Part shown: one piece after another, positions 25,582 to 31,814 of the stretch
Layout: each line of letters starts with the position of its first letter
Numbering within the stretch: position 1 is the first letter of the stretch
From: Escherichia coli
GTDB lineage: Bacteria; Pseudomonadota; Gammaproteobacteria; Enterobacterales; Enterobacteriaceae
Length of the DNA: 64,000 bases
Strand: one strand, 5' to 3'
Assembly: GCF_013122565.1 (NCBI RefSeq)
Contig: NZ_CP053258.1
Notes under the pieces: generated by a model
Told to the model about the DNA's origin: nothing
Seen by the model: only the letters and a program-made list of their open reading frames with translations
The model's database searches: none
Position numbers and translations under genes: made by a program

Positions 25582-26884
25582 GCGCCTGTACCTTGGCTCC
25601 GTAATCATTAATCGGCTGCCATTTCGCTGGCAGTCCGGTGAAATCTGCTTGCGCTACGCCAAGACGTACCGCCTGATCAATAACAATGCGCGCAACGTCA
25701 AAGTGACGTGCACGCGGATACTGTGACAGATATTCGCGTACCACCAGACCAAGATCCAGCGGCACTTGTCTGGTTTTGTACACAGCAAGTTGTTCTTCGA
25801 TGATCGCCGCCAGCTGTTCGCGGATCTCGTTAAATTCTTCGTATTCCAAATCTGGCGGAAGTTCCCCAGTCACTTCTTCATCGCGCAGTGCCATCTCTTC
25901 GTCACGCATATCCAGCAGACGATCGGCATTGGCATAAGTTAGCGCCCACGGCTCATCAAAATAGGTTTGTACCGACTGACGTAACCGCTGAGCAAAGACG
26001 CGGTTTTTATCCATATCGATCGCGGTACGAATAAATTTATGTACGTGGCGGTCGTAGCCAATCCACAAATCGATGGATTGCTGGCCCCAACTGATAATAC
26101 GGTCGAGTTTGCTCTGCAGATCGAACACCAGACGATCGACAAAATGCAGATCGTCATGAGTCATCGTCGCATCCTGAATGCGCAACAGATTAGCCTGCAA
26201 TTTGTCGCCTGCCGCTTCCAGCGTATCCTGCAATTCACGCAGCGTTCCGGAAGTTTCCGAAAGCAACAATTCACAGCTGGAAATCGCCGCCCGCCAGTCT
26301 TTGTTCAGCAACTGGGCAATATCGTCCTTCACCTGCTGCTGCTGTTCGTCCATCAGACGTTGCGTCAGGTCGATACTGTCGAAAATTTCTGCTACCGAAT
26401 ATTTCAGTGGCGCATAGACATTACGGTGCCAGTGAAATTCATCACCGCCCTCTTCGGCGGCATCTGCTGCGCGTTTTAGCTCACCCGCCACAATCGACAA
26501 CTGCATAGAAAGACGCAGCGTAGAAAACTCGCGCTGACGGATGTAATAGTCAGTAATGCCGATGCCGAGCGGCGTCAGACGGTAAATTGCGTTCCCTTCC
26601 GCCTGCTCGCTGGTAAAGCGGTTCAGCAGACGTTGACGCACCATGTCGTTGATCGCGTTGTTGGCGCGCACGCCGATGGTTTCGCTGGTTTGCTCAAACG
26701 CATCACTCACATGGCGGAATGCATCCACCAGCTCGCCTTCACTCATCTCACCATCCAGACGCTCGCTGTTCAGCGTGGCAACCGCCAGCAGAAAAGAGAG
26801 TCGGTCTACCGGCAGCGAGATGGAGAAGTCATTTTTTCTGGCCCAGGCAACCAGTTCGGGGACTGTCTGGGAAAATTCACTCAT
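25562..26884 (-). CDS. mukF: Chromosome partition protein MukF (kleisin)
   Basis: 440-aa [37 protein letters not shown]…. Confidence 0.95.
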
Positions 26885-27666
26885 ACTTTATCCTTGCTCT
26901 GCGGTTTGCGCGCGGTGACATGAATATAACGCCCCAGGGTAATATACGGTTCCTGACGGCAATAACGCGTTTCTAATTCAAGTAATGCTTCATAGCAGTC
27001 GCGCTGCTGGTGCTTCTCGCGCAGATAATCATGAAACACACGAACGCCTGTCTTACCCATAATTTGCCAACCAGCTTCTTCCAGCCACAGATAAACCTGC
27101 GCAGGGTCGCGTGGATAATCTGGCGAAAGCGTCCGTTTTTTCTTTTTCGGCATTCCCGCCTGCACGTAATCAAAATTCCCGGCGACCATGTTATGCATCA
27201 ACAAACCATGCGCATTGTAGAACATTAACGACAACACGCCGCCTGGACGCAACACTGACCACAGGGTCTGCAATACGCTGCGGGGATCAGCCACCCACTC
27301 GAGCACCGCATGGAACAATATCAGATCAACGGGCGTTTCCAAATGCGAAGCAACATCCTGAGCGGCGCAATGTATAAATTGCATGTTGTCGCTCACACCT
27401 TTTGCTTCTGCCGCCTGTTTTGCGCGGACGATCATCTGCGCAGAAAGATCGCATAAAATAACCTGATGCCCACGCTCGGCCATTTTGATTGCAGTCTGCC
27501 CTTCTCCACCGCCCGCATCCAGCACACGCAGTTTTTGCGGGCCCATTTCCGCCAGCACGCGATCGAGATCCTGCCACAGAATAGCCTGTCGAAGCTGTCC
27601 TTTGGTGGTGCCGTAAATGTTACGGGAAAACTTTTCCGCAATATCATCAAAATTGCGATCCTGCAT
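26881..27666 (-). CDS. cmoM: SAM-dependent tRNA methyltransferase CmoM (SmtA)
   Basis: ORF 26881..27678; start at [20 protein letters not shown] (261 aa); class I MTase motif LDAGGGEG; ATGA overlap with mukF. Confidence 0.9.
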
Positions 27667-27801
27667 TGCTTTCTCCACCGGTTGGCTAAGACGTTTTCTG
27701 ATAAAGACGCTATTTTGTCACAGCCACGGCGAGAATGAACCCGTCTGGTGTAATATCGCTGGCGATCCCTTGCTATATGGTCAAAAAAGGAACCAGAAAG
27801 G

Positions 27802-28581
27802 ATGCTTTTTACACTGAAAAAAGTGATCGGCGGTATGCTGCTGCCACTTCCGCTGATGTTGTTAATTATTGGCGCTGGCCTGGCGCTGCTGTGGTTTAGC
27901 CGTTTTCAAAAAACCGGGAAGATTTTTATTAGCATTGGGTGGCTGGCACTCTTGTTATTGAGTTTGCAACCGGTAGCCGACCGGCTGCTGCGTCCCATCG
28001 AAAGCACCTATCCGACATGGAATAATTCGCAAAAAGTGGACTATATCGTGGTGCTCGGAGGTGGTTATACCTGGAACCCACAGTGGGCACCGAGCTCTAA
28101 TTTAATCAATAACAGTCTGCCACGCCTGAATGAAGGTATTCGCTTATGGCGCGCAAATCCGGGATCAAAGCTGATCTTCACGGGAGGCGTAGCAAAAACC
28201 AATACGGTGAGTACAGCGGAAGTAGGTGCCAGAGTTGCGCAATCGCTGGGCGTGCCGCGCGAGCAAATTATCACCCTGGATTTGCCAAAAGATACCGAAG
28301 AAGAAGCTGCGGCAGTGAAACAGGCGATTGGTGTCGCCCCTTTCCTGCTGGTGACCTCCGCATCACATCTGCCGCGGGCGATGATCTTTTTTCAGCAGGA
28401 AGGGTTAAATCCGCTACCAGCCCCGGCGAATCAGCTGGCCATCGACTCGCCGCTTAACCCGTGGGAACGGGCAATCCCTTCTCCGGTCTGGTTAATGCAT
28501 AGCGACCGCGTTGGCTATGAAACGCTTGGTCGCATCTGGCAGTGGCTGAAAGGTTCGTCAGGCGAGCCACGGCAAGAGTGA
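27802..28581 (+). CDS. elyC: Envelope biogenesis factor ElyC (YcbC), DUF218 family
   Basis: 259-aa ORF MLFTLKKVIGGMLLPLPLMLLIIGAGLALLWF…. Confidence 0.9.
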   Translation: MLFTLKKVIGGMLLPLPLMLLIIGAGLALLWFSRFQKTGKIFISIGWLALLLLSLQPVADRLLRPIESTYPTWNNSQKVDYIVVLGGGYTWNPQWAPSSNLINNSLPRLNEGIRLWRANPGSKLIFTGGVAKTNTVSTAEVGARVAQSLGVPREQIITLDLPKDTEEEAAAVKQAIGVAPFLLVTSASHLPRAMIFFQQEGLNPLPAPANQLAIDSPLNPWERAIPSPVWLMHSDRVGYETLGRIWQWLKGSSGEPRQE

Positions 28582-29451
28582 TTTTGATGCCAGATCGAAG
28601 TTGCGCCGACTAAATCGTCCGGTATTAACCAGTTGCGCAACTTCATCCCATAACACATACAACCAACGCCGCCAGATGAACGACTCCGCCACTGGCGCGC
28701 GTTGCAGGTAACTCCAGAGCAAATCTTCCGCCAGAGAATTATCCATTAGTCGGAACAGTTCGTATTCCCGCGGTGCCCAAAGCATTAGTCCCGGCCCGAC
28801 CATCGCCAGTAACTGATCGCTGCGCGAATCTTTCAGCATGCTGCGTAAACAGAAGTTACCGTGAATCAGCACACAATTGTCGTTAAAGCCTTCAAATAAT
28901 GCCGGGAGACATTCGCGAGTGCGGAACAGGATCCGCTTATCCTGCATCGTCAGACCGGTGTTATTGAACTGATTGAGCGTGGTCCATAGCACTTCAACAT
29001 GTTGCCGGTACCATGAGGGCCAGAAATTTTCCTGAGTATTGTCGACCGCGCCGACGCAACCGCGACTGTCCTGACGGTGCCAGGCCAGTAAGGCTTCAAC
29101 GATTTGGTCTTTGAGCTGTTCCCAGCGTTCTGGTGTTCGGGCTGGTGCTTCCACCGAAACACCACGCATCCGCTCCAGTAGCAGGACATCGGGGCCGGAG
29201 TGTTCTTCATGCGTCATCACACCATAAATAGTCGGCATACGGACAGTCCCACTTCTTGCCAGCATGGTGGTTTTCCATGCCAGCTGTCGGGCTTTTCCGG
29301 GCGTACTAAAGCTTCTTGCCATTAACGGCATTGGGTTTCCCTGGCTGTCATACAAAGCCCACAACGCCGTATCCGCTTTTTCATTGACGCACTCAATACG
29401 ACTGAGTTTTTCGCCCAGTAAATGGCTTAATTCGGCACGCAGCTGTTCCAT
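28558..29451 (-). CDS. ycbJ: Uncharacterised kinase-fold (APH/choline-kinase-like) protein YcbJ
   Basis: 297-aa ORF MEQLRAELSHLLGEKLSRIECVNEKADTALWALYD…; 3' end overlaps elyC 3' end by 24 nt (convergent). Confidence 0.88.
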   Translation of the reverse strand: MEQLRAELSHLLGEKLSRIECVNEKADTALWALYDSQGNPMPLMARSFSTPGKARQLAWKTTMLARSGTVRMPTIYGVMTHEEHSGPDVLLLERMRGVSVEAPARTPERWEQLKDQIVEALLAWHRQDSRGCVGAVDNTQENFWPSWYRQHVEVLWTTLNQFNNTGLTMQDKRILFRTRECLPALFEGFNDNCVLIHGNFCLRSMLKDSRSDQLLAMVGPGLMLWAPREYELFRLMDNSLAEDLLWSYLQRAPVAESFIWRRWLYVLWDEVAQLVNTGRFSRRNFDLASKSLLPWLA

Positions 29452-29561
29452 TCAGATTACCCTCATAAAAGCTACTGCTTTCATAATGAGCGCCAATATA
29501 AAAGATGTCACCTGAATGAGATCAATTGTTGAAAAGAAAAATTGAGGAAAATCGTAACGGT

Positions 29562-29595
29562 ACGACACTCCTCCCAAAATTGTCTGGAGTGTCGT
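29562..29595 (-). terminator. Candidate terminator hairpin after kdsB
   Basis: 10-bp stem ACGACACTCC / GGAGTGTCGT with 14-nt loop; moderately U-rich tract follows on kdsB strand. Confidence 0.4.
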
Positions 29596-29604
29596 GAAGT
29601 GAAA

Positions 29605-30530
<926 letters not shown>

Positions 30531-30581: not shown

Positions 30582-31814
30582 TTATGCGACGGGGTCTATT
30601 TCCCAGCCAGTGCGGCAATCAGTAAAGAGACCTTGCGGGCAGCGTCCTAATGTCACCCGCGTTGCCTGCTGCCAGCTCGCGAAATCAGTAATCGCCTGAC
30701 GTAACCCTTTTTGCAGCGTTGTCGTTGGTTTAATACCTTCCTGTAACCACAGAGAGATAACTTCAAGGATGCCTATCTGGCGATGCATTTTGGCATCCAT
30801 TCGCCCAACTAATTGCCCACGATGTAATAACGGCAGAACAAAATAGCCATACTGACGTTTCGGCGCTGGGGTATAGCACTCCAGCCGGTAGCTAAAATCA
30901 AAAAGCTGCTCTGCGCGTTTGCGATCCCAGACAACAGGATCAAAAGGCGAAAGTACCGCGCTGTGCGTTGCAGTGAGCTTTCCGGCCAGCGCACGCTCGA
31001 GTAGCGGCAGCAAATCAGCATGCAGCCAAAGATTGCCCAATTTTTCAACATGCACAGCAATGATTTGCTGCTGTTCAGCCCTCGCTTCACGCCACGCCGC
31101 CAGTGCCGGACGTTTCAGCCGATAGTAATCTGCCAGCCACTGTTCGCGGAATATTCCCAGGCTACGCGCACTGTTATCCAGCATGCTGATTTCTGCTTCT
31201 GTTTGCGAAACGAGATCGCGCTCATCATCCCAGTCAGGCATGACACGGTGGGTTAAATCATAAACGCGCTGGAAGTTACGCCGTTCAATCACCATCACCT
31301 TTCCGGCAGTAAATAAACCTTCCAGATGCCGTTTATGCGGCTTCCATTCCCACCAGCCGCTTGCACCTTTACGAGGATGCTCAAAATCGGCTGAACGTAC
31401 CGGCCCCTTATCATGAATATGCTGAATTAACTGTGCAATTTCCGCCTCATGTTCCTGCATCCAGGCGTCTTTGTATTTCCAGCCCATTTTTTCAGGTGCC
31501 AGCATGCGGTGGCGAATAAGACGAAAGTCGCTACGCGGCATAAAGCAGGCTTCATGCGCCCAGTATTCCATTAATTCGCCACGCGCCAGAGACTCATCCA
31601 GCCACTGGGCAGGATAATTTCCCAGACGACTGAAAAGCACCAGATATGGACTACGGGCAACAATATTGATGGTATCGATTTGCAGCAAGGACATGCGGGA
31701 GATAGTTGCCGGAATATCCTCCAACGACGCTCGACGGCGGGGTTTGTTTAACAGGCCTTGTGCGGCAAGGTGAAGATTACGCGCATCAGCAAGGGAGAGG
31801 TGCGGCAGCGACAT
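30582..31814 (-). CDS. ycaQ: Winged-helix DNA glycosylase YcaQ (AlkZ-like)
   Basis: 410-aa ORF MSLPHLSLADARNLHLAAQGLLNKPRRRASLEDIP…. Confidence 0.88.
   Translation of the reverse strand: MSLPHLSLADARNLHLAAQGLLNKPRRRASLEDIPATISRMSLLQIDTINIVARSPYLVLFSRLGNYPAQWLDESLARGELMEYWAHEACFMPRSDFRLIRHRMLAPEKMGWKYKDAWMQEHEAEIAQLIQHIHDKGPVRSADFEHPRKGASGWWEWKPHKRHLEGLFTAGKVMVIERRNFQRVYDLTHRVMPDWDDERDLVSQTEAEISMLDNSARSLGIFREQWLADYYRLKRPALAAWREARAEQQQIIAVHVEKLGNLWLHADLLPLLERALAGKLTATHSAVLSPFDPVVWDRKRAEQLFDFSYRLECYTPAPKRQYGYFVLPLLHRGQLVGRMDAKMHRQIGILEVISLWLQEGIKPTTTLQKGLRQAITDFASWQQATRVTLGRCPQGLFTDCRTGWEIDPVA

Follow-up and report, generated by a model that had tools for sequence, protein, structure and literature searches.

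Escherichia coli ycbJ carries the name of a phosphotransferase, and its sequence raises the question of whether the encoded protein can still work as one. We examined the gene in a stretch of 64,000 nt from contig NZ_CP053258.1 (assembly GCF_013122565.1), hereafter the window. The open reading frame (ORF) was identified as E. coli ycbJ by the NCBIfam equivalog NF007890 (567 bits; coordinates in Table 1). An initial annotation of this DNA, made from the letters alone, had proposed that YcbJ combines a kinase-like fold with degenerate catalytic motifs. Comparison with its homologues indicated that YcbJ is probably a functional pseudokinase that acts by binding and not by catalysis, and that canonical phosphotransfer by this protein would be very unlikely.

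The fold and family of YcbJ were investigated by sequence and structure comparison. YcbJ matched the Pfam APH family PF01636 over residues 64–249 with 31.5 bits (cut-off 23.2; E 2e-7). An AlphaFold2 model built on a 42-sequence alignment was confident, with a mean predicted local distance difference test score (pLDDT) of 93.8 and a predicted template modelling score (pTM) of 0.89. The top Foldseek matches of the model in the PDB were fructosamine-3-kinase (FN3K) structures, namely 3f7w (E 6.9e-14), 9cxo and 3jr1, with template modelling (TM) scores of 0.70–0.72 at a sequence identity of only 13–19%. APH(2'')-Ia and APH(4)-Ia were also matched (TM 0.64–0.75), and 3w0m was among the matches. A single-sequence search of PDB sequences with YcbJ returned nothing significant, and the window protein gave no match to PF03881, the hidden Markov model (HMM) of the fructosamine-3-kinase family, at E ≤ 10. 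A profile of YcbJ and its relatives recovered human FN3K (9CX8) at E 1.7e-13 and, behind it, further FN3Ks, hygromycin kinases and APH(2''). Precomputed matches to PF03881 exist for the orthologues in Yersinia, Erwinia, Pectobacterium and Plesiomonas. Because the best profile and fold matches are FN3Ks, the nearest family of YcbJ is that of the FN3K-like small-molecule kinases and not APH(3')/choline kinase. The proposed kinase-like fold was thus confirmed by the above-threshold PF01636 match, the model with pLDDT 93.8 and TM scores of 0.70–0.74 to FN3K/APH structures; of the proposed APH/choline-kinase affiliation, the PF01636 match stood, and the closest relationship had to be moved to FN3K-like enzymes. 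The solved structures that match YcbJ best (human 9CX8/9CXM, Arabidopsis 6OID and T. fusca 3F7W; PF03881) have in common with it an H-G-x catalytic loop, an x-(D/N/G)-P-(A/G) segment, a (W/Y)G/AxRE(x)(D/E)L motif and a W..(F/W)(F/Y) helix.

Three approaches were used to check the register in which the catalytic motifs align: a MAFFT alignment that included canonical relatives, HMM profiles against human FN3K, and the secondary structure of the AlphaFold model. The string VLIHGNFCLRSMLKDSRSDQLLAMVGPG, on which the initial annotation had based its reading, corresponds to YcbJ residues 194–221. MAFFT placed HGN199 under HGD, S204 under N and V218-G219-P220 under I-D-P; H197-G198 and the flanking VL(I/V) aligned without gaps to VL(I/V)HGD of 65 canonical relatives, and P220 to the Pro of IDP. 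Two different HMM profiles gave the same columns against human FN3K (LLHGDLWSGN...IIYDPAS). The model showed the H197–N199 loop between strands 193–196 and 205–207, and G219-P220 after strand 214–217, which is a kinase-like placement. The Plesiomonas orthologue has D, N and D in exactly the 199/204/219 columns. None of the three methods aligned an Asp at the catalytic-loop position, the outcome that the initial annotation had named as speaking against its proposal. Its replacements of the catalytic Asp by Asn (Asn199) and of the downstream loop Asn by Ser (Ser204) were borne out by the MAFFT and FN3K profile alignments. Its assignment of Ala-Met to the metal-binding Asp position was out of register, the true equivalent being Gly219, 2–3 residues from Ala216-Met217, but it had rightly found no Asp there.

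An overview of the nucleotide-binding and catalytic positions showed that the losses extend beyond these three residues. In place of the G-x-G-x-Y-G, V-K, E, (I/V)HGDxxxxN and IDP of the distant relatives, YcbJ of the window has VNEKADT, A-R46, L57, IH197-G-N199-FCLR-S204 and V-G219-P, and it is therefore without all three of the beta3 Lys (R46), the catalytic Asp (N199) and the metal-binding Asp (G219). FN3K equivalents, counted through the profile alignment and the residue numbers of PMC11754801, were Lys41=R46, Asp217=N199, Trp219=C201, Asp234=G219, Asn284=D269, Asn287=A272 and His288=Q273. E. coli YcbJ thus lacks Lys41, Asp217, Trp219 and Asp234 of FN3K, including the gamma-phosphate contact Trp219, and carries Gln273 in place of the substrate-binding His288. 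The His288 equivalent is kept in 53/65 distant canonical relatives, which have Asn at the Trp219 position. The suggestion that YcbJ is a non-canonical or inactive phosphotransferase was supported and even understated, since R46, L57, G219 and the loss of the Gly-rich loop are to be added to it; the loss of activity that these changes predict is drawn from sequence and analogy. Two conserved acidic residues were considered as substitutes for those lost, and both were rejected: Asp208 is ancestral and also occurs in canonical relatives, and Asp212, considered as a metal-Asp equivalent, does not vary even in the Plesiomonas protein, where Asp219 is present as well.

Either D217N or D234N alone leaves human FN3K without activity, both towards a small substrate and towards glycated lysozyme, and its Asp217 hydrogen-bonds O3' and O4' of the sugar (PMC11754801). 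YcbJ carries changes at both equivalents (N199 and G219) together with four further losses, from which we infer that it is inactive. YcbJ thereby falls into the operational class of pseudokinases, having a kinase fold without the key residues and being under purifying selection, with a loss of activity predicted by the FN3K mutants. It has the sequence match and the fold of the APH superfamily and none of the catalytic features expected of its members.

The distribution of these replacements was determined in a census of 448 aligned full-length sequences, for which the key columns were tabulated. A word-index homologue search returned only proteins of 85–99% identity, and the diversity came from a representative search and from re-querying with distant members. 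The representative search was exhaustive and gave only 202 clusters, of which a few were full-length and YcbJ-like and the rest were proteins of about 300–320 aa at 20–28% identity. A scan of genome contigs was confined to its 80 best loci, nearly all of them in Enterobacteriaceae, and does not make the deep distribution visible. Asp199 was found in 0/367 orthologues at ≥50% identity, in 6/6 Plesiomonas-type sequences and in 63/65 distant relatives; Ser204 occurred in 355/367 orthologues. The catalytic replacements are not due to chance, as they are fixed across the 367 orthologues.

The orthologues fell into groups that differ in how much of the active site is left. In the group at ≥65% identity (n=249; Enterobacteriaceae-like, with Escherichia, Salmonella, Citrobacter, Enterobacter, Kosakonia and others among its named members), position 199 was N229/S10/H8/Q2, S204 was present in 249/249, position 219 was G217/N23 with a few S/A/E, position 46 was R215/K29/Q4/H1, and L57 occurred in 227. 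The group at 50–65% identity (n=118; named members Yersinia, Serratia, Pectobacterium, Dickeya, Brenneria, Erwinia, Sodalis, Rahnella and Edwardsiella) had K46 in 118/118, E57 in 116/118, N199 in 118/118, S204 in 106/118 (N in 10) and N219 in 111/118. All six Plesiomonas-type sequences had K, E, HGD, N and D with a G-x-G remnant (Asp219 in 6/6), and the 65 distant relatives were canonical (K 65, E 65, D at 199 in 63, N 65, D at 219 in 64). Two further lineages, L003 and L005, represented other intermediates, reading HGN..T..DP and HGK..A..AP, respectively. With the Lys–Glu pair kept, the 50–65% group seems to have retained nucleotide binding after catalysis had gone; the disappearance of the pair from Enterobacteriaceae points to additional remodelling. 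Among the cluster representatives, one Yersinia-like metagenomic sequence (P0123, representing a 50% cluster) aligned to YcbJ residues 1–221 only and continued as unrelated sequence; it is probably a frameshift or assembly error and not a real variant.

The Plesiomonas homologue is flanked by kdsB on one side and a convergent DUF218 (elyC) gene on the other, the order being msbA-lpxK-ycaR-kdsB-X-elyC-...-cmoM-mukF, and the canonical Plesiomonas protein, sharing this msbA...mukF neighbourhood, is the positional orthologue of YcbJ. L003 and L005 have this neighbourhood too, up to the ends of their contigs: the L003 contig runs from msbA to mukB without elyC, with ycbJ directly followed by cmoM; the L005 contig starts at the ycbJ homologue and continues with elyC-cmoM-mukFEB. 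The simplest reading of these sequences is that an active ancestral kinase degenerated in two steps within one syntenic orthologue group. In the first step, both acidic residues would have been changed to amides and the Gly-rich loop lost; in a second, later step in Enterobacteriaceae, the Lys–Glu pair and Asn219 would have been lost too. The gene context of the distant canonical relatives, with acetyltransferase, nucleotidyltransferase, NUDIX and MIF genes as neighbours (L090:1496-3938, L091:1123-3558 and L087:4226-6275), gave no clue to the ancestral substrate of YcbJ. The L090 and L091 loci each carry two FN3K-like paralogues on the same strand with one small gene between them, a layout reminiscent of small-molecule modification or detoxification clusters, and one cluster member among the distant canonical homologues was named Lachnospiraceae.

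Selection on ycbJ was estimated by the Nei-Gojobori method against ten species. The ratio of non-synonymous to synonymous substitution rates (dN/dS) was 0.026–0.058 for ycbJ, 0.012–0.046 for the essential gene kdsB, 0.043–0.125 for elyC and 0.042–0.128 for cmoM; dS was saturated in the more distant pairs, and the ycbJ pairs within Escherichia gave 0.026–0.029. The frame was intact at 296–301 aa in 79/80 species of the genome scan, the exception (L086, 276 aa) stopping 1 base short of the locus end. The gene is under strong purifying selection and is not a pseudogene or relic. Residues conserved at ≥95% included N199, H197, G198, L202, K207, D212, Q213, P220, G221, R228 and E229. Many of the residues conserved only in the YcbJ clade lie in 101–156, and clade-only residues include E101, A102, P103, R105, R126, D128, S129, D137, Q140, N142, D212 and Q213. 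The near-invariant N199 and S204, the conserved loop residues and the clade-specific 101–156 segment are what one would expect of a cleft and a C-lobe that have not stopped binding something. We propose that the preserved cleft and the conserved, clade-specific C-lobe surface would hold a small ligand or a protein partner, with a nucleotide or a sugar-type substrate of the ancestral kind as the candidate ligand. The acid-to-amide exchanges would keep hydrogen bonding and remove the catalytic base and metal binding.

The main rival to this proposal is that YcbJ is a repurposed enzyme that performs another chemistry, like AMPylation by SelO or glutamylation by SidJ, through Asn199, Ser204 and the clade-specific residues. 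Kinase-fold enzymes with new chemistry have precedent (PMC12599244), and Asn199 and Ser204 are almost invariant instead of drifting, with dozens of residues conserved only in the YcbJ clade. SelO, however, keeps the metal-binding DFG Asp and the catalytic-loop Asn (motif table, PMC12599244), both of which are gone from YcbJ. The Enterobacteriaceae-like proteins have no acidic metal ligands, loop Asn, Lys–Glu pair or Gly-rich loop, leaving little that could hold Mg-ATP. SidJ-type enzymes also depend on residues that bind the metal–nucleotide complex. Moreover, the catalytic positions vary by clade (N/S/H/Q at 199, G/N/S/A/E at 219, R/K/Q/H at 46), which would be unusual for a working active site, and we consider a new chemistry unlikely. 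It is still less plausible, and in our judgement improbable, that YcbJ has remained a phosphotransferase of a non-canonical kind, using displaced catalytic residues or metal-independent transfer. This is what the database name and the above-threshold PF01636 match would lead one to expect, His197, Gly198 and the hinge Glu93 are kept, Asp208 is conserved, and active kinases with a displaced Lys exist (WNK, cited in PMC12599244). Yet a single D→N exchange at either equivalent kills human FN3K, and YcbJ has both positions changed and four more losses; neither the ancestral Asp208 nor Asp212, which coexists with Asp219 in Plesiomonas, is a compensating replacement; and the name derives from homology, with no functional study of YcbJ found in the literature.

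Two further explanations were weighed. The gene could be a decaying or functionless relic, or be kept only for its DNA or transcript at the overlapping elyC 3' end (an excludon). The loss of catalytic residues fits this, the 24-nt overlap and the excludon listing are real, and no clean loss-of-function phenotype is known. This reading is strongly disfavoured by the dN/dS of 0.03–0.06 over all 297 codons, as low as in the essential kdsB, by a frame of 296–301 aa in 79/80 species, with the one shorter sequence cut by the locus end, and by the gene having its own conserved promoter and ribosome-binding region and a detected protein. The overlap, moreover, covers only 8 codons and is absent in Plesiomonas, L005 and some Citrobacter that have an intact ycbJ. 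Lastly, the degenerate motifs could be an alignment artefact, with the canonical Asp residues lying in a shifted register; the earlier Ala-Met assignment was in the wrong register, and single-sequence similarity to solved kinases is weak. The gap-free alignment of H197-G198 to the 65 canonical relatives and of Pro220 to the IDP Pro, the agreement of two profiles against FN3K, the predicted secondary structure that puts the motifs at kinase positions, and the D, N and D of Plesiomonas in the same columns leave this explanation a negligible chance.

Several points nevertheless weigh against the view of YcbJ as a pseudokinase that works by binding. Its inactivity is inferred from sequence, biochemical activity data for YcbJ were not found among the open-access papers and bioRxiv preprints searched, and the cleft and C-lobe surface of YcbJ were assigned by homology and not from measured geometry. 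Some presumed pseudokinases have proved active through displaced residues (WNK) or other chemistry (SelO, SidJ) (PMC12599244), and the near-invariant Asn199 and Ser204 would fit a new role in catalysis just as well. YcbJ has no known ligand or partner and no known clean phenotype, and the Keio deletion also hits elyC. The only published gain-of-function phenotype of ycbJ is glycogen excess on overexpression; this excess and the context of the kdsB/lipopolysaccharide (LPS) cluster and elyC are weak hints of function. A more specific and rather doubtful version, which we offer tentatively, is that YcbJ is a natural "substrate-trap" FN3K-like kinase, in which the paired Asp-to-Asn exchanges, acquired independently in 3JR1, would have turned a sugar or sugar-amine kinase into a protein that may bind the ancestral ligand and/or a nucleotide without turnover and might serve as a sensor or sequestering factor, induced at low oxygen, in the control of the envelope (Kdo/LPS, ElyC) or of carbon storage, or else that Asn199 and Ser204 perform a chemistry new to the fold.

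The pseudokinase reading places YcbJ beside known cases of the same kind. Like KSR1, EphB6 and ActPs2, YcbJ has the beta3 Lys replaced by Arg, and the VAIK Lys, the HRD-type Asp and the DFG-type Asp are gone while selection is kept. The Lys-to-Arg exchange has been discussed for these three pseudokinases, and the bacterial Ser/Thr pseudokinase families have been reviewed (PMC12599244). The pseudokinases reviewed derive from protein kinases, whereas YcbJ comes from a small-molecule, FN3K-like lineage outside the coverage of that review. APH enzymes (PF01636; APH(2'')-Ia, APH(4)-Ia, APH(2'')-Id) have the family HMM match and the bilobal architecture in common with YcbJ, but they depend on two Asp residues, one catalytic and one metal-binding, and on the loop Asn, none of which is present in YcbJ. 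Unlike them, ycbJ is a core chromosomal gene in conserved synteny and not a resistance determinant, with no sign of antibiotic modification. Bacillus subtilis YcbJ (MphK) bears the same name and is also a member of the broad APH-like superfamily, yet is an unrelated namesake: it is an active macrolide 2'-phosphotransferase and a resistance factor (PMC5760710), and the literature on it is silent about the E. coli protein.

A natural parallel was PDB entry 3JR1, a "putative fructosamine-3-kinase" from Haemophilus (Histophilus) somnus, which was the top PDB match (E 1.3e-4) of a profile made from the YcbJ orthologue group alone. Where plant and human FN3K read HGD...DPA, 3JR1 reads ILHGNLWIEN...VCNPA, in a segment aligned to YcbJ residues 197–221 (window 28789-28863, minus strand). 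As in YcbJ of Yersinia, Serratia and Erwinia, Asp is replaced by Asn at both the base and the metal site, and the Lys and Glu are kept. 3JR1 is a true FN3K member (E 1.8e-26 to plant FN3K) that is distant from YcbJ (E 0.9 in a single-sequence comparison) and, unlike YcbJ, keeps the loop Asn; the Asp-to-Asn pair is accordingly best read, from these alignments, as having arisen in parallel in the 3JR1 lineage and in YcbJ and not as a shared degeneration. The papers that cite or use 3JR1 contained no remark on the Asp-to-Asn substitutions.

The locus itself is nearly universal in the species. A 1.9-kb region around ycbJ was matched in 5425/5426 complete E. coli genomes, in which the gene is annotated as "YcbJ family phosphotransferase" and adjoins elyC. 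Window 27700-29600 had ≥99% identity in 0/5425 of the matching genomes and a best DNA identity of 98.7%, and therefore represents a lineage or allele poorly represented among complete genomes. Since no hydrophobic segment was found (maximum Kyte-Doolittle 19-residue mean 0.73), YcbJ is soluble and presumably cytoplasmic, with a mass of about 34 kDa. Codon 85 of the window gene (29197-29199, minus strand) encodes Ser where all other compared orthologues, including the main E. coli cluster, have Pro85, which is ≥90% conserved across the degenerate clade; Ser85 is taken to be peculiar to this strain, in a loop where the residue is otherwise conserved. In the comparisons inside the genus, with E. 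whittamii and Escherichia sp. E1V33, ycbJ showed a synonymous divergence of 0.86–0.93, and kdsB, elyC, cmoM and ycaR one of 0.19–0.56, about half as much (28558-29451 compared with 27802-28581, 29605-30351 and 26881-27678), while the dN/dS of ycbJ stayed low; codon-usage effects or past recombination are possibilities. The neighbour kdsB belongs to the conserved gene order msbA-lpxK-ycaR-kdsB-ycbJ. The gene immediately upstream of ycaR in the window is ycaQ (30582-31814, minus strand), which Plesiomonas (L001:3916-5114) and L003 (L003:3731-4944) lack; in these two, ycaR comes directly after lpxK.

The reported overlap between ycbJ and the 3' end of the convergent elyC was confirmed and was 24 nt long in 66/83 loci where elyC could be scored, 21 nt in 5 and 36 nt in 2. 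It spans only 8 codons and is missing from several Citrobacter, Plesiomonas and lineage L005, in which ycbJ is intact. The pair has been listed as a convergent excludon (PMC12288877). According to the literature, the published Keio ycbJ deletion also inactivates elyC, so that its phenotypes cannot be assigned to ycbJ.

A promoter scan indicated that ycbJ has its own promoter region. Upstream blocks invariant in ten genera (TTGATCT, GGTGACAT and CGCTCATTAT-AAAGCAGTAG) coincided with the scan's promoter-like hexamers, and the ribosome-binding region, GGGGTAA, was likewise invariant. The FNR-like box was not significant by count, with 48 matches in the window against 34.5 expected; its right half was not conserved and its TTGATCT half-site was. 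The conserved promoter with the FNR-like box fits published data: in transcriptomic studies, ycbJ is one of a small core of genes that respond to oxygen limitation by induction in E. coli, Dickeya, Pectobacterium and Yersinia; the literature lists it as a single-gene, FNR-activated, anaerobically induced unit. The YcbJ protein has been detected by mass-spectrometry proteomics. Upstream of the promoter, starting 10 nt past the kdsB stop, a hairpin with a 10-bp stem (ACGACACTCC / GGAGTGTCGT) and a 14-nt loop was observed (window 29562-29595, minus strand), whose 3' arm was recognisable in Citrobacter braakii too. It has no immediate T-run and was not called by the terminator scan, but may be a candidate terminator of kdsB.

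Table 1 Features of the ycbJ locus, with positions numbered along the 64,000-nt window.
Feature	Position	Strand	Remark	Basis
ycbJ coding sequence	28558..29451	-	297 aa, predicted soluble protein, FN3K/APH kinase fold	ORF
Nucleotide-loop replacement V22-N-E-K-A-D-T28	29368..29388	-	canonical relatives have the Gly-rich nucleotide loop G-x-G-x-Y-G here	alignments
Arg46	29314..29316	-	position of the ATP-binding beta3 Lys (FN3K Lys41)	alignments
Leu57	29281..29283	-	equivalent of the alphaC Glu, the partner of the beta3 Lys	alignments
Catalytic-loop remnant H197-G198-N199-F-C-L-R-S204	28840..28863	-	canonical H-G-D-x-x-x-x-N	translation; alignments to canonical relatives and FN3K
V218-G219-P220	28792..28800	-	I-D-P metal-binding motif (FN3K Asp234), Asp to Gly	alignments
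ycbJ promoter region	29483..29525	-	FNR-like box, -35-like and -10-like elements	promoter scan
FNR-like box TTGATCTCATTCAG	29525..29512	-	2 mismatches	
-35-like GTGACA	29511..29506	-	abuts the FNR-like box	
-10-like CATTAT	29488..29483	-		promoter scan
Tail-to-tail overlap of ycbJ (...SLLPWLA*) and elyC (...SGEPRQE*)	28558..28581	both	24 nt	ORFs
elyC	27802..28581	+	DUF218 envelope biogenesis factor, convergent neighbour	ORF; annotation in E. coli genomes
kdsB	29605..30351	-	CMP-Kdo synthetase, co-directional upstream neighbour	ORF; synteny in Plesiomonas and L003

A search of open-access papers and bioRxiv preprints found no paper that describes E. coli YcbJ as a pseudokinase or gives its function, which does not prove novelty. 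What appears to be undescribed is not the gene, which is known and annotated, but its status as a conserved, stepwise-evolved FN3K-like pseudokinase. ycbJ is a core gene of E. coli and most Enterobacterales, and our results indicate that its database label "phosphotransferase" is misleading. The orthologue group forms a rare natural series from enzyme to pseudoenzyme within one syntenic gene, running from the canonical Plesiomonas protein through Yersinia, Serratia and Erwinia, with Asn/Ser/Asn and the Lys–Glu pair, to the fully degenerate Enterobacteriaceae. Pseudokinase status would move experiments from the search for a substrate to the search for a ligand or partner, and would explain why activity screens would fail. 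The elyC overlap confounds the existing ycbJ deletion mutants and hints at where a phenotype may be sought, and the place of ycbJ in a conserved low-oxygen response suggests the conditions under which to seek it.

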